Shown here piece after piece: positions 1-23,938 of a stretch of 32,905 nt of DNA. The notes beneath the pieces were generated by a model. It did not search any database. It was not told the DNA's origin and saw only the letters and a list, made by a program, of their open reading frames with translations. The position numbers and the translations under genes were made by a program. The DNA is from Candidatus Nanoarchaeia archaeon (lineage in GTDB: Archaea; Nanobdellota; Nanobdellia; Woesearchaeales; DATDTY01), in assembly GCA_035290625.1 (NCBI GenBank), contig DATDTY010000018.1:1-32905 (forward strand). Direction: 5' to 3'. The first letter of the stretch is position 1. The number at the start of each line of letters is the position of its first letter.

Positions 1-623
1 GTGACCTCCTCCCCGCCCTAAAGGGCGGGGCTTCCTGCGCTAACTGAACACCACGTTGTGGTGTGCTTCCTGATTCTTGATATAGGCCTCACAAACGGCA
101 AGATCATTCACTCCTACCGTCGCTGAATAACTGCTCGGCGCCCAGAAATGCCTCTTGGGGTAGCGCAAGGCAACGTGCTCGCGGTTGCGAAAGATAAGGT
201 AGCTTGAACGGCCCTTCAACAACGCAAGCGCCTGCGAATCAGTCATGCCATTCGGCAGCGTCGCCAGCGAGTGCACATGCTCCGGAAGAACACTCAACAC
301 GCGAAACACAATCCCGTGCTCGTGTGCTGCCTTGCGAATCGCAGCAGCCACAAGATTTTTAATCTCCAGCCTCTGCATCATCTTGTAGCGATACTTCGTG
401 CACCACTCAAAGTGCCAAAAATTCATCGTCACCTTATGGCTCAACCGCTTCATGCTGTTCATGCTCTCGTCCTCCGGCGGAAGAGAGCTCACGCTACTTT
501 GGATTGGTAGTGCGTGCGCAGTTTCGTCCGCCAGCTTGCTGGCGGCGAAGCCGCCACAAAAATGTTTCTATGGAGAAACGCCCTAAAGGGCGGGGGTTTA
601 AACCCTAGCTCGCTACGCTCGCT
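1..623 (-). mobile_element. IS200/IS605-family element, TnpA only (IS200-like)
   Basis: Y1 transposase flanked by the same subterminal hairpin CGCCC-TAAA-GGGCG (within 11..30 and at 579..592). The minus-strand right end reads GAAG-hairpin-AGGAGGTCAC, ending at position 1. The left end has AAAC before the hairpin and a TTAG target (ctaa 624..627). Confidence 0.85.
40..492 (-). CDS. tnpA: IS200/IS605 HUH (Y1) transposase
   Basis: HFEWCTKYR, HUH motif EHVH, LKGRSS, FWAPSSY..TVG and catalytic Tyr in YIKNQ. The true start may be a downstream Met. Confidence 0.95.
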   Translation of the reverse strand: MSSLPPEDESMNSMKRLSHKVTMNFWHFEWCTKYRYKMMQRLEIKNLVAAAIRKAAHEHGIVFRVLSVLPEHVHSLATLPNGMTDSQALALLKGRSSYLIFRNREHVALRYPKRHFWAPSSYSATVGVNDLAVCEAYIKNQEAHHNVVFS

Positions 624-9333: not shown

Positions 9334-9378
9334 TGGTGTTAGAGACTGCCAGTACTATAAATTAGTTTTTATTGAGAA

Positions 9379-9534
9379 AGCAGCGTTCAAAATCTCCTGG
9401 GTTGCCATCGGCTCGCCTAATCTTTCTAAGGAATAAAGCTGACATCCCCGAGGGGGCAAGTCCCCCTGTCAGCTGTGCATCTGCCTGTAAAGAGGCTCGC
9501 AAGAATGATGGCAACCTTCATTTTGAACGCTGCC
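9379..9534. mobile_element. Structured MITE-like element, copy E1
   Basis: TIR AGCAGCGTTCAAAAT/ATTTTGAACGCTGCC; direct repeat TATTGAGAA at 9370..9378 and 9535..9543; core CCCCGAGGGGGCAAGTCCCC at 9446..9465. Confidence 0.8.
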
Positions 9535-9588
9535 TATTGAGAAACTTGTGAGGTTTAGAAAAAAGCATTAAAAAAGAAAAAATGAGCC

Positions 9589-12999: not shown

Positions 13000-13202
13000 G
13001 GCTCTGCCGAAATCCTTCGCTTCGCGGCAGTGCCGGTACTCAAAAATGCTTTGTATTTTTGGTCGCTCCTTCGGAGCAGCTCGGTCTCGGCACGTTTACG
13101 AATATATCGACATATCCCCGAAGGTGGCAACCCCCTTGTCGATGCTCATTCTTTGGAATACTGACCTCGCGAATGGGCACTGCACCGGATTTCAGCAGAG
13201 CT
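13000..13202. mobile_element. Structured MITE-like element, copy E2
   Basis: TIR GGCTCTGCCGAAATCC/GGATTTCAGCAGAGCT; imperfect direct repeat GCCTGGATA (12991..12999) / GCCGGATA (13203..13210); core CCCCGAAGGTGGCAACCCCC at 13116..13135. Confidence 0.8.
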
Positions 13203-13438: not shown

Positions 13439-16400
13439 GGAATGCAGCGGCAATAAGGAGCGTGGAAAAGGGCAAGAGCGGGGCAAACGCATCTCGAAGG
13501 ATGGTCTATGCTTCATTGCTCGGCCTGATTCTGGCTGTTTTCTTATTTACGCCGCTTTTTTGGAGGCTTGATCCTACAGGGTATATTGTTGCAAAGCGAA
13601 CAACGACATATTCCCAGGAAGTGGGATGGGAGATAAATGAAAGCTCTGATGCTCTTTGGCTGGTAGAGCACCCGCAGGAGATAGTCCATATTGCAGTGAG
13701 CGGAAGCATAGCAAAGACTGGAAGCGCTAAGATATTTATTGAGGGATCAGATGGGCGCTACCTGATTTTTGACAGCAGCAGATTAGAGGAAAAAGGATTA
13801 TGGATAGTAACTGGCGCAGCTGTTCCCAATGAGAGTTTTGCCAATGAAACGACGTCTAATGAAACGATGTTAAACCTATCAGCCAACACTGGTTTTTCAA
13901 ATGAGACAAGCATCCAAACAAATATCACTTCAGCAAATATCACTCGGGTTCAGGAAGATAGGGGTTCTGCACCAACGCCGGCATCCGTTCTGGAAAGGAC
14001 CACTTTCAGCAATGCGTGCATTGATACCTGCGATGTAGCCGGATTCAACAGCAGCTCATATGTTCTTGTTTTTGAGATTAATGGCACTTATGTGCATATA
14101 GACGGCATTTCCTATTCCATTGAGAGGGAGGTTCTCAATAAACCACCTATTTTTGCCGGCATTCCCAACCAGACTATGATGATGGGCACGAATCTTTCTT
14201 TGAAGTTGAGTGATTATGCGCTTGATCCCGACAACGACTCCCTGACCTTCTCGTCATATAAGGCGGATAATTTGTCTGTCGTGATCGAAGGGGACCTGGT
14301 TACGCTGCTGCCTGAGCCGGGGTTTGAAGGAACGCGGTATATCTTCTTTATAGCTAATGACAGCATTGATGTTGCGGTTTCGCCTCTTGTTGAGGTTTCT
14401 GTAAGCAGAATTGCAAGACAGAGAATAGAAGGAGAGACTTTTCAGAGTTCTGCCAGGATTGGCAAACCTGTAAAATGGGTTAAGAGGATCAGAGGAGAGA
14501 AGGGCAGGGAGAACATAAGCACTGAGCTTCCAAGATTAGCGGGAAATATTTCTGTCAGGAAGGTGAATGAGCTGACTGGCGAGGAAAGAGAGCTTGAGAT
14601 TGCTGTTCAAAATGAAAGAGAAGTACAAGAGGTTCCTGCCATTATAACCGGCCAGGCAGTCAGTGAGGACAGCATATCAGGGGGTTCTGGATTGATTTCG
14701 AGATTTTTTGCATCCATTTCAGGAGCCAACAGGATCACGGGAAGGGCTGTTGAAGTGGTTCAGGAGCAGGAGAAAGAGAATATCACTGTGAACATAGACG
14801 GGGAAGCGGTTGAAGAGGAGGATGAATTTGTCATTGAATATTATACTGATGCCCCGTATGCAGAGGAGCGCAGGATAGATGGAAGATCCAAGGAGATAAC
14901 CGTTATCGGGCCTGATGAGGTTGGGTATGAGAATGTACTGGCTTTCTCAGAGCTTCCTTTTGAGGTTAGTGATGAGAGAAAGATAAAGCTGTATCATAGT
15001 GTTGACGGACTTAAGCAGGAAAGCGAGTTCACAGCATATGATAATGATGGAGACGGATTGTATGAGCGCATAGAATGGGTCGTTCCTCATCTGAGCGAGC
15101 AGGTTTATGAAATCGTCATTATAACAAAGGCTGAGCACCTGGATGAGAATAAGGCTGTTGTAAGCGATATATATGAAAGCGTTAAGGAACAGGAAGGAAT
15201 CTGGTCTGAGCCCATCCCTCCAAACCATTATGTTAGGGCCACATTTGAACAGCCGCTTGACTCTGCAAAAGACATAACCCTATACGCAAGATCTGCCGGC
15301 AACAGCTCAGCTTCTCTGGAGGTTTATACTGAGAACGGAGAGGGGATCATAGCATCAATTGGAAACATAACCGCAGAAAACAGCTATACGATGCCCCTTA
15401 TAGGATTGTCAGAAAGCACAGCAACTGTTGATATAAAAGTCCTTGATGGAACAATCGAGATCGACTATATCGTCGATCCCAGCCTGATCTCTGTATCAAC
15501 AGCAACTATTCCCCGAGTGATAAATATCCAGGGAAAACTGACAAATGCAGCAAATGCAGCAGTCTCTGACGGGACCTATGGGTTTGTGTTTACCCTGTAT
15601 AATGTCTCAAGCGGCGGCACGGGATTGTGGAATGAGAGCCACAATATCACAACCGTGAGCGGGGTGTATGATGCTGACCTTGGCAGAAAAACTTCCATGA
15701 ACCTTGAATTTGACCAGAGTTATTACCTTGGAATCAAGGTAGAGAGCGATGCAGAGATGACACCGAGGATAAACTTAACAACAAATCCGTGGGCATTCCG
15801 CTCTTTTGTCGCGTATGAGCTCGCAAGCACTGATGGATGGATATCATTGAAGGGGAATGTGAACGCAACCCAGAACCTTACAGTTGTTGAGAACCTGAAT
15901 GTAACTGGGAACATAACAGCAGCACAGTTTATTGGAGATGGAAGCCTGCTGACGGGGATTAGCAGCGGAGGAGGGAATACTACTACTGAAATGGCTTCTG
16001 CCCTGGACAACACGAGCATTGTTCGGGAGTATCAAGGGTATTTCAAAAGCGAAGTCAATCTGACCCAATTATTGGATGATAATTACAGGAATATATCAAG
16101 CAGGGTTGGCAACACAACGGCAGAGATACGGGAGCAGTTCCTTAACTCAAGCAATGTCACGATCAGAGATGGGGTTATTTCTATCAATGAAACGTTCCTG
16201 AGGGCAGGGGATGCAGCAGGCGGAAACACTTCTGCTGAGATGATAGATGCAACTACCGGGAATGTTAACTCTACTTCATGGTTGAAAGCTGGCGCAAACA
16301 TTATCTTAAAGGTTTTTTCAGATTTTGTTGGCATTGGCACATCCGGGCCATCATCTCGGCTGGATGTCAATGGAAGCGTTAACGCAACCCAGTACCTGAT

Positions 16401-20171: not shown

Positions 20172-20192
20172 ACCCGGGCAAACCATCCAGCC

Positions 20193-20399
20193 GGTGGCAT
20201 TGAAAAGTCATGCAGCGCCCTCTTGTGAGCCATTATAACGGAGCGGCGGCACAGCGACAAGGGAGTTGCCCCCTTCGGGGAATGTCGCTATTCTGACCGA
20301 ATAGCTCATGGCGAACTGCTCCGCAGGAGCGACCAAAAATGCGAAGCATTTTTGAGTACTGGCGCTGCCGAGCGAAGCGAGCAACTTTTCAATGCCACC
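20193..20399. mobile_element. Structured MITE-like element, copy E3 (opposite orientation to E1/E2)
   Basis: Perfect 16-bp TIR GGTGGCATTGAAAAGT/ACTTTTCAATGCCACC; direct repeat ATCCAGCC at 20185..20192 and 20400..20407; core GGGAGTTGCCCCCTTCGGGG at 20261..20280. Confidence 0.85.
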
Positions 20400-20446
20400 A
20401 TCCAGCCGCAACTCTTTTAAACGCAAAACCTTTTTCGTTGTAAACT

Positions 20447-20562
20447 GCGGGAGTAGCAAAGCCTGGTCAAATGCGCAGGACTTAAGATACGAGACAAGGA
20501 AAGTAGGAGATAAGGCATCCTGTCGGTTAGTCCGTTCGCAGGTTCGAATCCTGCCTCCCGCA
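20447..20562 (+). tRNA. tRNA-Leu(UAA) with a 30-nt intron at 37/38 (20487..20516)
   Basis: Acceptor GCGGGAG/CTCCCGC, CAGGA/TCCTG anticodon stem, long variable arm, GCAGG-TTCGAAT-CCTGC; bulge-helix-bulge with helix CTTA/TAAG and bulges AGA/GCA. Confidence 0.93.
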
Positions 20563-20592
20563 TTACCTGTTAAGTAGATTTTTTAGTTCTTA

Positions 20593-20757
20593 GGCTTTTT
20601 GCAAAGGCTCGCTTGCGTTCGGGGTAGCGTCGGTTCGCACGCGATACTATTTGCTCCATTGACATCTCCCGGATGGAGAACAACCCCTCGGTCAATGCGC
20701 CTTCCTGTTTTTAAGGTGCTCACAATAGTGACGCTACCCTTCCCTTTGCAAAAAGCC
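20593..20757. mobile_element. Structured MITE-like element, copy E5 (diverged core)
   Basis: TIR GGCTTTTTGCAAAGG/CCTTTGCAAAAAGCC; stems GGGTAGCGTC/GACGCTACCC, GCAC/GTGC, CATTGAC/GTCAATG; core TCTCCCGGATGGAGAACAACCCC; no clear direct repeat. Confidence 0.75.
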
Positions 20758-20826
20758 TTGAGGAAGTTAACGGCTTTGCTCAACATTACCGCTAGATTTA
20801 TAAATCTGGTTTCTCAAGAGAGGGGA

Positions 20827-21339
20827 ATGGATGATCACAAAGTATTTCTTGTTTTTCTGATAGGAACGCTGCTAGCGTATGCTGTGCTTTTTACTGCAGA
20901 GATTACTGGCTTTCTTGTGAAGGAGGAGCAGCTTTCGCTGGATATCAAGGAGACTGGCAGCATCAGGAGGCATGCTCCAGGAGATACTGTGACCTTGGAG
21001 ATAAGGTTGCGGTCCAGCCAGCAGAGCTATCCTGCTGATGTGATCATCTTCTATTCAATCCAAGACAAGGACTTCCATGACCTCAGCTACCGAGAGGACA
21101 CCTTTGCTGTCACAGGGATGGAATCATCATTTACGAGGCAGATCAGGATTCCAGATGTTAAGGATGGACAATACTATACCTTTGCTGAAGCTCGGCTTGC
21201 GGCTGATGAGAGCACTCGCTCACAGGATCGGGTTGTTGTTTATATTTCAGGAGGACAGCCAACAAGAATTATTTATTTAGGCATCCCCCTTGGCCTGCTC
21301 TTCATGCTGAGCGTTGCTGCTCTGAAATATCGCCGCTGA
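20827..21339 (+). CDS. Small membrane-anchored Ig-like surface protein
   Basis: Start MDDHKV at 20827, with TATA at ~20798 and GAGGGG upstream. N-terminal TM with ITGFLV, C-terminal TM. The longer ORF call runs through element E5. Confidence 0.75.
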   Translation: MDDHKVFLVFLIGTLLAYAVLFTAEITGFLVKEEQLSLDIKETGSIRRHAPGDTVTLEIRLRSSQQSYPADVIIFYSIQDKDFHDLSYREDTFAVTGMESSFTRQIRIPDVKDGQYYTFAEARLAADESTRSQDRVVVYISGGQPTRIIYLGIPLGLLFMLSVAALKYRR

Positions 21340-22162
21340 AGCGTTCTGTGTTGGTTGTATGAAGCTTGAGAGTATCCACGATTGTTGAGATGTCGTTGGC
21401 AGAACGGCTGATGAGGGTGTTGTGAATCTTCCATGGGAACTGTTCTGTAACAGATAAGCAGCCTGCATAGTCGATGTGGCTTTGGATGAATTCACCTTTT
21501 TTCAGAAACGGCAGCCCATCCTGCTCTGCGAGATGGACTTCTGGAAGGCTGCCTGTTTCCTTATAGATGAAGCCAAGCAGAGCCTGAGCAGCAAGATCAA
21601 CAAGCGGCATGTGGCTTGCTATCATAAGGATGCGACGAGCAGGAATTGGGTTTCCAGCATATTCCAAAAGAGCCTCGTTGACGTTTTCAAGGATTGCAAG
21701 AGCCATTGCAGCTCCGCATAAGCCTTCCATCCGGGATGGAATGCCATCAATCTTCGAAGGAAAATAATGGGTTGTGGCCCAGGAGAGTATATAGCCGCTT
21801 ATGTTGCCTTCCTGGAGGCGGGGGTAATATTGGTGATACTGATCAGTGCCAAGCAGCTTCTTTGCCTCAAGGATGGCATCAAGGCCTGTCCTATGATCCT
21901 CTTTATATGAGATAGCATCAAGATGTATCTCCGCGCCACCAAAAAAGTATTCAATGGTCTCTTTTGTTCGCGGATAGCCTGAGTGGATTGCCAGTATAGA
22001 GTCATACGGTGGATGCAAGAGATTATTCCCTTGCTCCAGAAGAGTTTGCTGGCCGCGGGTGTTCACATGGGCAGCCCTGCTTACTTCGAGGGTTTCTCCT
22101 TGGAAACGCTGCCTTTCCCCGCTGCGAAATATGAAGATATCCAGCGAAGACAATGAGGACAT
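21302..22162 (-). CDS. Histidine phosphatase-superfamily-like protein with degenerate active site
   Basis: IFIFRSGE (cf. RHGE), SGYPRTKET (cf. SP.xRA.ET), LMIASH (cf. VSH). Confidence 0.55.
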   Translation of the reverse strand: MSSLSSLDIFIFRSGERQRFQGETLEVSRAAHVNTRGQQTLLEQGNNLLHPPYDSILAIHSGYPRTKETIEYFFGGAEIHLDAISYKEDHRTGLDAILEAKKLLGTDQYHQYYPRLQEGNISGYILSWATTHYFPSKIDGIPSRMEGLCGAAMALAILENVNEALLEYAGNPIPARRILMIASHMPLVDLAAQALLGFIYKETGSLPEVHLAEQDGLPFLKKGEFIQSHIDYAGCLSVTEQFPWKIHNTLISRSANDISTIVDTLKLHTTNTERFSGDISEQQRSA

Positions 22163-22208
22163 GCCTGAAGTGAATATGTTGGGTTTTATAAAACATTCCC
22201 ATAAAACA

Positions 22209-22370
22209 GGCTCAGTAGAAAGTCGATATTGCCGCCATTTTTGCGAGGCTCGACCAGGAAAGAAATTCGGAAGCGGAGGGAGTTGCCCCCTTCGGGGAGG
22301 TGCCGCTCCTAAATGAAACTTGCAAGAGCCGAGCTGGCGGCAATCGCGGAGCGAGACTTTCTACAGAGCC
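22209..22370. mobile_element. Structured MITE-like element, copy E4
   Basis: TIR GGCTCAGTAGAAAGTC/GACTTTCTACAGAGCC; perfect direct repeat CCATAAAACA at 22199..22208 and 22371..22380; core GGGGAGTTGCCCCTTCGGGG at 22278..22297. Confidence 0.88.
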
Positions 22371-22417
22371 CCATAAAACACCCGGGTTTTTAAAAGGGCT
22401 ATGCTTCTTTATGGCAC

Positions 22418-23938
22418 ATGAAGGATCCTATCCAGCACATTGTGGAAGATACGCTTCAGAAGGGCAAGCAAGCCCTGATATTTTTGTCAACGAAGCCAAG
22501 CGCAGAGAAGACTGCAGAGGATATCAGCAGGAGCCTTGGGAGCGAGAGCAAGGAGCTTGCTGAGCTTTCAGAGGAGATCCTGCACGATTTGGGAAAACCG
22601 ACTGAGCAATGCAGGAGGCTGGCATATTGTGTGAAGCGAGGCATTGCATACCACCATGCAGGGCTTACCCATGGCCAGAGGGAAAGGGTCGAGGATGGAT
22701 TCAGGAACGGTTTGATTAAGGTTATTTGCTCGACCCCGACTTTGGCGTACGGCATAGACATTCCGGCATTCCGCTCAATCATCAAGGGTGTGCAGAGATA
22801 TGGGGGAAAATACGGCATGCAGTGGATACCTGTCCTGGATTATATGCAGATGGCAGGAAGGGCAGGAAGGCCGAAGTATGACAAGGTTGGAGAGGCGCTG
22901 CTGATTGCAGGAACACAGGCCGAGGCTGAGAAGCTATTTGAGAGGTATCTCCAGGGCCAGGCAGAGCCGCTCTACTCGAAATTGGCAGTTGAGCCTGTGC
23001 TCAGGACATACCTCCTTTCCCTGATTTCAGCAGGATTTGCCGGAGACAAGCAAGGCATTCTTAGCTTTTTTGGGAAGACGTTCTGGGCGCATCAATACAG
23101 GGATATGGCCAGCCTCCAGAAGAAGATTGAGAAGATGCTCGGGCTGCTGGAGCGATGGGGGTTTATTGAGGCTGAGAGCGCAGAGTTTATGCCTGCATCG
23201 TCGCTTAAGAAGGCAGAGAATAGACGGTATGAGGCAACTGCTCTTGGAAAAAGGGTTGCTGAGCTGTACCTTGATCCGCAAACAGCTCACCACTTCCTCG
23301 AGTGCATGGGGGGAAAGGAAGCGACAGAGTTTGGGTTGGCGCAGGCAATTTCGTGGACACTTGAATTGCGGCCATTACTGAGGCACAGGCAGAAGGAATT
23401 TGATCTGCTGCAGGAGAAGCTTGGCGGGGTTCAGCTGCTTGTTTCAGAGCCAAACCTCTTTGATCCTGAGTATGATGAGTTCATTGATTCTGTGAAGACT
23501 GCAATGTTCTTCATGGACTGGATGGAAGAGAAGGATGATGACTATCTGCTTAATGAGCATCGTATCAGGCCTGGAGAGACGCGCGTAAAGCTTGCAACTG
23601 CAGACTGGCTTCTGTACGCATTTGAGGAATTTGCAAAGATTTTGAAGAAACGGGAGTTTCAGAAGAAGGCTGCTGAGGTGAGGATACGGCTCAAGTATGG
23701 AGTGAAATCAGAGCTTCTCCCTTTGCTCAGGCTTGAGGGGATTGGAAGGGTAAGGGCAAGAAAGCTGTTCAATTTCGGGATTAAAGATATTGGAGATGTG
23801 AAAAACGCAGGCCTTACCACCTTATCCCAGCTTCTTGGAAAAGAGACAGCACTTCGTGTCAAAAAGCAGGTTGGGCAGGAGATTGAGGCTGTTCCTGATG
23901 GGAAGAGGAAGGGCCAGGTCAGCCTTGGGAAGTTTTGA
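22418..23938 (+). CDS. hel308: Hel308 (Ski2-like) helicase, C-terminal portion only (RecA2, WH, ratchet, HhH)
   Basis: HHAGL, STPTLAYGIDIPA, QMAGRAGRP, ATALGKRVAELYLDP, RLKYGVKSELLPL..LEGIGRVRARKLF. No Walker A or DExH; in-frame TAA at 22391. Confidence 0.88.
   Translation: MKDPIQHIVEDTLQKGKQALIFLSTKPSAEKTAEDISRSLGSESKELAELSEEILHDLGKPTEQCRRLAYCVKRGIAYHHAGLTHGQRERVEDGFRNGLIKVICSTPTLAYGIDIPAFRSIIKGVQRYGGKYGMQWIPVLDYMQMAGRAGRPKYDKVGEALLIAGTQAEAEKLFERYLQGQAEPLYSKLAVEPVLRTYLLSLISAGFAGDKQGILSFFGKTFWAHQYRDMASLQKKIEKMLGLLERWGFIEAESAEFMPASSLKKAENRRYEATALGKRVAELYLDPQTAHHFLECMGGKEATEFGLAQAISWTLELRPLLRHRQKEFDLLQEKLGGVQLLVSEPNLFDPEYDEFIDSVKTAMFFMDWMEEKDDDYLLNEHRIRPGETRVKLATADWLLYAFEEFAKILKKREFQKKAAEVRIRLKYGVKSELLPLLRLEGIGRVRARKLFNFGIKDIGDVKNAGLTTLSQLLGKETALRVKKQVGQEIEAVPDGKRKGQVSLGKF

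Follow-up and report, generated by a model that had tools for sequence, protein, structure and literature searches.

Insertion sequences of the IS5 family are ~900 bp long, carry a single DDE transposase gene between ~15-bp GGC...AAA ends and make 8-9-bp target duplications, and the miniature inverted-repeat elements (MITEs) derived from them have matching ends. The IS5-family subgroups concerned here are presumably the IS903 and archaeal ISH1 groups. The elements described below share these ends and duplications with IS5-derived MITEs, but their interior is not IS sequence, their insertion is tied to TATA boxes, and their core is common to at least six transposase clades and to a second family of ends. 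The bridge (or seek) RNA of IS110/IS1111 elements has internal loops of variable sequence between conserved stems, and these elements make no 8-9-bp duplications. As far as the descriptions available go, that RNA is of similar size and build to our core; the loops found here, however, do not match the target, and the elements are flanked by 8-9-bp duplications. Targeting by transcription factors is known from yeast Ty3, which is directed by TFIIIB.

Insertion at a constant spacing from a promoter is described for the prokaryotic Mutator-like elements TnGBS, ISLre2 and ISKra4, bacterial members of the Mutator superfamily that insert 15-17 bp upstream of the sigma-A -35 box and whose symmetric ends permit both orientations, and a promoter preference is merely suggested for archaeal ISH6 (PMC3942029, available text). 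The fixed distance and the two orientations are shared by the elements reported here; unlike in those bacterial elements, IS5, IS6, IS481 and an unnamed family all have a common gap to the archaeal TATA box. Structured MITE-like repeats of ~150 bp, with short duplications and stable folds, are known from bacteria (Bacillus bcr1, Nezha, nemis/Correia; PMC3184786; further examples in PMC10969869), and bcr1 exhibits both 5-bp repeats and compensatory changes (PMC3184786). In contrast to our family, each of these is described with one kind of end, and the available text of PMC3184786 describes no exchange of a core between transposase families. Neither a core crossing between end families nor a common TATA gap was found in the literature searched, mostly open papers without their supplements.

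The window, that is, the whole stretch of DNA analysed (32,905 bp), is contig C18 of a genome of 84 contigs (1.37 Mb) from a groundwater archaeon of the Woesearchaeales (DPANN). Where relatives of its transposases are named, most are from Woesearchaeota, and a TFB gene is present. Five elements, E1 to E5, lie in the window, and the flanking repeats and ends named for them in a preliminary description were all found in place (perfect for E4, E1 and E3, with a one-base indel for E2). Their extents and, for E4, their parts are as follows, with the repeats and boxes read from the sequence itself.

9379-9534, minus strand: E1, a 156-bp MITE of end class E with a perfect 9-bp duplication (9370-9378 and 9535-9543); its left end is that of the autonomous element L082.
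13000-13202, minus strand: E2, a 203-bp MITE of class I with an optional hairpin module and a worn 9-bp duplication containing a one-base indel; a TATA box lies 6 bp past the right copy.
20193-20399, plus strand: E3, a 207-bp MITE of class B with a perfect 8-bp duplication (20185-20192 and 20400-20407); the class B word is also found on autonomous L072 and L497 and on the left end of L498.
20568-20785, minus strand: E5, true extent 218 bp with TGT...ACA ends, a GGC-type stem (20593-20757) being internal; a perfect 5-bp duplication, TTACC, flanks it (20563-20567 and 20786-20790), with a TATA box 6 bp past the right duplication.
22185-22192, minus strand: TATA-like box facing away from E4, 5-6 bp past its left duplication and ahead of the minus-strand gene at 21302-22162.
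22199-22208, no strand: left target duplication of E4, 10 bp, perfect.
22209-22370, plus strand: E4, a 162-bp MITE whose ends are of class A (the IS5 clade marked by the inner word GTAGAAA); two autonomous members of the IS5 family with 9-bp duplications, L175 and L500, have the same ends.
22209-22223, plus strand: left terminal inverted repeat of E4, pairing at 14/15 positions with 22356-22370 (sequence and fold).
22229-22343, plus strand: conserved core of E4 (fold z -4.5 as DNA and -5.8 as RNA; covariation).
22278-22297, plus strand: apical motif of E4, consisting of a purine run, 4 nt and a YYC-pentaloop-GRR hairpin, with possible base triples (three-way covariation, a lead only).
22371-22380, no strand: right target duplication of E4, 10 bp, perfect.
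22387-22395, plus strand: TATA-like box 6 bp past the right duplication of E4, ahead of a Hel308-like gene at 22418.

E4 is flanked by two divergent promoters, with a gap of 5-6 bp on each side. Its 10-bp duplication exceeds the class norm of 9 bp; among autonomous relatives, 3/36 perfect duplications are likewise 10 bp long. E3 sits upstream of the promoter of a tRNA at 20447; this tRNA (20447-20562, between E3 and E5) spans 116 nt, suggesting an insert or intron, and the duplication of E5 starts at its 3' end. Copies on contigs C33, C51 and C72 likewise abut tRNA-like ends.

Other features of the window were recorded alongside. The Hel308-like helicase looks split: the gene in the window (22418-23938, plus strand) encodes Helicase_C, domain 4 and HhH with no DEAD domain, and a separate 222-aa gene with Walker A and DEVH motifs lies on contig C46 (L014, 582-1250, minus strand). 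A gene with a start similar to that of the window gene was seen in genome G232 (L308). An IS200/IS605 TnpA is encoded at 40-492 (minus strand) with palindromes at 14-33 and 579-598, one of six such matches in the genome, and no link between it and the MITE core was found. A further, separate element of 467 bp occupies positions 711-1177 and overlaps short ORFs; its inverted ends (20 bp) are perfect, and its 14-16-bp flanks resemble each other.

E1 to E5 are members of a non-coding family of ~180 copies. A profile built from 75 de novo copies matched 183 places in the genome (2.2% of the sequence) and none in the reversed genome. Paired ends were found for 130/183 matches, nearly all of them 136-262 bp long, so that these elements are short, non-coding and bounded by terminal inverted repeats, as MITEs are; two of the 130 were left out beforehand, and the counts below refer to the remaining 128 bounded copies. 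The density of ~130 per Mb is close to the 105 candidate MITEs per Mb that a survey of prokaryotic genomes gives for one Woesearchaea genome (PMC11602168); unlike the present analysis, the main text of that survey has no mention of TATA boxes or account of ends, partners or structure, and its supplements may list these same sequences. The same element with its duplication is present in other families of the order (E4 alone matched 4/60 genomes), and more copies were found in loci fetched from other genomes; no claim is built on genomes G120, G131, G182, G207 and G315. Close neighbours, with an identity of 98% or more, exist for only 4/128 copies, which marks most insertions as old. Taken together, E1 to E5 are probably non-autonomous DNA transposons (MITEs) built of exchangeable parts.

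Target duplications were assessed as direct repeats of 8-10 bp abutting the element ends with at most one mismatch, and chance was estimated by swapping flanks between copies in 2000 shuffles. Such repeats flank 55/128 copies and are perfect in 34, compared with a chance mean of 0.115 (maximum 2) and 0.02 for perfect repeats; a good duplication is missing in 73/128. Insertion with 8-10-bp target duplications, as proposed from the window, is borne out, and the repeats do recur in additional copies. It had also been proposed that each copy has its own terminal inverted repeat. Here the complementarity of the two ends within a copy stands as described, but the ends sort into ~10 classes that recur, and the duplication length depends on the class. 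Class B (E3) has 8-bp duplications, perfect in 14/27 copies with none perfect at 9 bp, and classes A (E4), C, D and E (E1) have mostly 9-bp duplications. No empty allele of E1 to E5 was seen in read runs X3, X14, X6 and X20, of which three are apparently of the same strain and one has scant cover. A filled and empty pair was seen at one site, for an autonomous class J element (L150 versus contig C7): L150, identical to our genome over three pieces, has the class J IS behind the duplication of the class A MITE of C7, and C7 has no element at that site and a TATA box 6 bp on, although L150 may be mis-joined across a repeat at its far end. The class-specific duplications, together with autonomous elements that have the same ends, support insertion by DDE transposition.

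An IS5 model matched 137/401 genomes of the order, and ends were read at 230 transposase loci (the IS5 matches plus two collection scans) and then at 47 more, 7 of them re-read. Elements of ~900 bp bear the MITE ends of class A (L175, L500), class E (L082, L260), class D (L257) and class J (L069), class B ends are found on L072 and L497, and class F ends on L491 (1183 bp). Six classes (A, B, D, E, F and J) are thereby matched, along with one end of a seventh, I; among the transposase loci read, classes C and G had no partner. NF033579, the NCBIfam model of the IS5 family (cut-off 140), is passed by 6/7 of the partner-type proteins scanned, and by 4/4 of the alignment members scanned as well as L082. 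Four proteins fall below the cut-off (L104 131.7, L175 131.6, L072 95.9, L491 88.3), and NF033579 is the best match for all of them. Representatives of different end classes are 22-51% identical.

A tree of 140 distinct proteins with good ends, out of the 230 loci (quick method, SH-aLRT only), shows that the inner end word follows the transposase clades, with the class B protein on a long branch. Among 95 high-scoring proteins, end positions 7-10 are the same as in the nearest transposase in 81. Within single autonomous elements, the two arms mismatch at positions 3-6 in 28/95 (at two or more positions in 17) and at positions 7-10 in 3/95, figures that understate arm mismatch because at least 11/15 matching arm letters were required. 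The arms of the MITEs themselves depart jointly from their class consensus 51 times versus 13 expected, which can be explained by descent or by arm correction; recognition that depends on pairing would give the same result.

These observations bear on the two readings offered in the preliminary description, namely one structured cargo riding several DDE lineages, or an enzyme that recognises a paired stem and not a sequence. Under the second reading, a single enzyme would bind the stem in which the two ends of a folded single strand pair, and the ends could drift together freely. The complementary arms within copies, their joint departures, the classes C and G that lack a partner and the state of E5 (an inner stem that is perfect beside worn outer ends, see below) are all compatible with such an enzyme. 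However, identical end words delimit autonomous IS5-family elements and track the tree of their transposases, duplication length varies with end class (8, 9 or 5 bp), which is not expected of one enzyme, and the clade-specific word at positions 7-10 is kept although unpaired positions 3-6 are tolerated. Since the ends follow the transposase tree and positions 3-6 are often unpaired, a stem-reading enzyme is not needed, and we give the idea hardly any credence. The sequences instead have the pattern of a set of sequence-specific IS5 lineages for which outer-arm pairing would not be required. The first reading is supported: end classes map to separate IS5-family clades, and the core also occurs within the 5-bp family of ends described below.

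The genome itself offers few candidate mobilisers. As proposed, no DDE transposase lies in the window (searches with four DDE models gave 0 matches there). In a search of the whole genome for transposases with the same ends, both ends of a class J element turned up where contigs break off and proved identical to L150, and C17 has a class A-like remnant, but no intact transposase of classes A-F is assembled. Most copies are thus probably either old or the work of visiting elements. The intact resident IS5 has ends that match only core-less MITEs (a complete copy on C30 and a second end pair on C15); the copy on C30, 219 bp long at 15139-15357, adjoins an IS481-like end. The kinship of the ends to IS6 and IS903 that had been suggested survives in part: they are IS903-like at the family level only (NF033579), and the readable ends of IS6 differ. 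The IS6 elements (the C49 resident and L351/L352) have other ends with 8-bp duplications and match neither the GGC classes nor the 5-bp family. An IS1634-family transposase (L001) on the 2.3-kb contig C61 was rejected as a mobiliser, since its ends differ from those of the MITEs; a repeat in the flank of C61 is known from bacteria, and C61 may be a binning stray. IS1595 and PF13751 models had no match in the genome, and no solved structure related to the transposase was found by sequence. As a separate observation, the transposase frame of autonomous IS5 elements (L041, L043, L047, L051 and others) often runs through the right inverted repeat, such that the end encodes the last residues and the stop codon is supplied by target DNA.

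For E5 no clear duplication had been described. None is indeed present at its GGC ends, because the GGC-type stem is the inner one; the real ends lie 25-28 bp further out and are flanked by the perfect TTACC. The outer arms of E5 are worn (8/15 matching each other) and the inner stem is perfect (15/15), so the assignment rests on better copies with the same build on C24, C59 and C80 (5-bp repeats matching at 5/5, 4/5 and 4/5) and on other genomes. A 20-nt pattern of the TGT end matched 17/301 genomes, several of them with many copies, and the complete TGT-ended copies in those genomes have 5-bp repeats. In G170 the core is enclosed by TGT ends that are flanked by a perfect 5-bp duplication, in G250 it adjoins TGT ends, and unrelated hairpins occupy the TGT-ended copies of G232 and G076. 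The TGT ends thus define a separate MITE family, and the core is common to both. Contig ends of G134 (L425-L433, L445-L462) show a burst of near-identical TGT-ended elements with ~50-bp ends and an unassembled interior, nearly all of them 12-14 nt from a TATA box.

The transposase of the TGT/5-bp family was sought in several ways. Pattern searches of 301 and 261 genomes failed to reveal it, as did an rve search in 5 genomes, the reading of 40 fetched regions, a de novo scan of our own genome and a search in G134, where the element interior is unassembled. Of two viral scans, one gave 0 matches and the other 26 single ends, none of them paired. IS481 has TGT ends, but its inner sequence differs and its duplications are 14-16 bp, and it was rejected as the mobiliser of this class.

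Between the ends, the copies share a core that folds into nested helices. In E4 these are helix P2 (22229-22237 with 22335-22343), a short helix with tandem G.A pairs (22245-22246 with 22331-22332) and helix P4, together with two variable loops. Of the 71 copies free of optional modules, 62-71 form a Watson-Crick pair at any given column of the terminal helix, of P2 and of the tandem G.A helix, and several pair types are represented. Arm pairing exceeds that in swapped-arm controls for P2 (7.7 vs 4.6), P3 (3.7 vs 2.6) and P4 (5.8 vs 4.0), counts that are inflated by the relatedness of the copies. The pairing pattern holds across genomes in 13 sequences, a comparison that is partly circular since the structure was taken from E4. 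Within the apical motif, the purine strand of the hairpin has a mirror in the first purine run: the run has A where the hairpin has T-A in 11/11 and 9/9 cases, and where the hairpin has C-G in 7/72 and 14/78. This three-way covariation suggests base triples, although it may rest on two events.

The core is absent from all 230 autonomous elements, and the four core matches in those loci stand beside the IS. Core exchange between end classes was assessed on the 103/128 copies that could be parsed. The nearest core belongs to another end class for 24/96 copies (one such pair is 97% identical), and 3/103 copies have two different assigned ends, which fits recombination between copies. Five optional hairpin modules gave 86/86 matches inside elements and none outside, and there is hence no sign of modules moving alone. 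An unidentified sequence starts right after a GCCCC run at C34 13478, C9 19761 and C39 25807; two of these three junctions lie inside the apical motif of the core, which is possibly targeted by a mobile element.

A functional RNA, whether regulatory or an RNA intermediate of the element's own spread, could account for such a fold, with the MITE ends as a vehicle and selection acting on the RNA. In keeping with this, the invariant tandem G.A pairs occur on one strand only, the apical loop on that strand resembles the UNCG type, the apical motif shows three-way covariation and other families of the order preserve the fold. However, the stems are almost purely Watson-Crick without a G.U bias (23 G.T vs 16 A.C), the conserved strand folds better in only 67/128 copies, and only 6/128 copies contain a TATA box of their own. 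Orientation relative to the flanking promoter is even (27 vs 29, with 5 flanked on both sides), and 28/64 contexts are divergent and offer no read-through. No Rfam family matched the elements in the window at E<=1, and only chance-level matches were obtained at E<=5 in 9 loci. HDV-like ribozymes require a P3/L3 layout, which is missing here, and a pseudoknot of the 5' linker with the purine run was dropped (247/1000 shuffles were as good). The variable loops were rejected as guides: in the 102/128 copies parsed, their longest match to target flanks averages 5.77 vs 5.66, and 28/200 shuffles reach the value. We regard selection as an RNA as improbable. The scarcity of copies with a promoter, the insertion in either orientation to genes and the divergent contexts favour a role at the DNA level, and most likely the fold would help transposition or survival of the element as DNA, a reading that the available evidence weakly suggests.

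Alternatively, the fold may have no function, with template switching at inverted repeats correcting one arm by the other and the core being a passive stuffer. The nearly pure Watson-Crick stems are as expected from such correction, the TGT-ended MITEs of other genomes hold unrelated hairpins, and the core-less MITE of the resident IS5 shows that a core is not required. But arm correction would erase the tandem G.A mismatch, it leaves the fixed loop lengths and the conserved apical motif unexplained, and the de novo scan yielded just two core-less short elements against ~180 with the core. This explanation is unlikely, if less so than selection as RNA, and a fold that benefits the element at the DNA level is retained as the working reading.

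The insertion sites themselves follow a pattern. A TTTAWA box starts 13-19 nt outward of the element end at 61/128 copies, compared with 3.8% of 20,000 random non-coding sites; a strict TATA match is missing at 67/128. At 30/65 sides the box is followed 27-29 nt on by the first ATG, as in leaderless genes. TATA starts peak at 12, 15, 16 and 22 for duplications of 5, 8, 9 and 15 bp, i.e., at the duplication length plus 7. The peak is at 15 for class B (10/18 sides) and 16 for class A (10/21), and autonomous IS5 elements have the box exactly at 16 on 50/83 TATA-bearing sides. For the TGT ends it lies at 12-14 in G134 (15/18), with only 2/10 at 12 in our own genome by the strict pattern. For IS481 it is at 21-23 (7/14 ends), for IS6 at 15 (3/9, with three others at 12 or 17) and for the resident IS5 at 15 (3/7). 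The duplication therefore ends ~6 bp before an outward-facing TATA box, and in archaeal promoters these 6 bp are the position of the BRE. Insertion at what would be the upstream edge of the BRE leaves promoter and gene intact. Successive insertions stack at one promoter edge, both at the L150/C7 site and on C1, where the 9-bp duplication of a class A copy consists of the 8-bp repeat belonging to the adjacent class B copy and one further base. The available text of PMC7986276, PMC7002104 and PMC6640164 gives no account of TATA-linked insertion.

This position could result from selection only, if insertions occurred at random and only those in the little free sequence upstream of the BRE survived. 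The genome is ~84% coding by the ORF map, and selection would place unrelated families at the same position, as observed. Yet beyond the other end of the element there is a median of 49 bp of free sequence, and often more than 100 bp, so selection alone poorly explains a peak that is 1-2 bases wide, and that peak shifts base for base with duplication length and is met exactly by the majority of TATA-bearing autonomous IS5 sides. We consider selection as the sole cause quite unlikely. The same gap for IS6 and IS481 points to a hotspot made by the host more than to a trick of one transposase. Such a hotspot may be the edge of bound TBP/TFB, or the bend made by TBP/TFB; a predicted complex of the TFB core with an IS5 transposase scored 0.01, a value that speaks neither for nor against it.

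From these results we propose the following mechanism. In each copy, the ~15-bp ends would serve as recognition sites for a single clade of small IS5-family transposases (~900 bp) working in trans. The clade could be told from the inner letters of an end, and it would also determine whether 8 or 9 bp are duplicated. Ends, duplication lengths and tree do match one another in the data, and they suggest mobilisation in trans by the cognate transposases. In a minority of copies, including E5, the core with its GGC-type stem would be nested in TGT...ACA ends with a 5-bp duplication, which would need an unrelated DDE enzyme. The core would be a nested hairpin kept by compensatory change and no remnant of an IS. 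Mosaic copies are observed, and the core may change its ends by recombination between its many copies and by nesting.

The either/or posed by the preliminary description can be answered from the genome data: the varied ends reflect several sequence-specific transposases, not a structure reader. One conserved fold in both IS5-type and unrelated TGT/5-bp ends goes beyond ordinary MITE biology, and its crossing to an unrelated end family suggests selection on the cargo itself. A bolder reading, possible though doubtful as a whole, is that the core is a selfish folded single-strand module that aids any ends and is passed between unrelated DDE families, and that TBP/TFB sets one universal site 6 bp upstream of TATA for all DDE families of these archaea. 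If this is true, a selfish core that has tandem G.A pairs and, at its tip, a small structure like a triple helix would raise the success of the transposon ends that surround it. Four duplication lengths with one TATA gap make a simple, testable rule comparable to sigma-A targeting in bacteria, and the archaeal transcription machinery may steer transposition to harmless sites.
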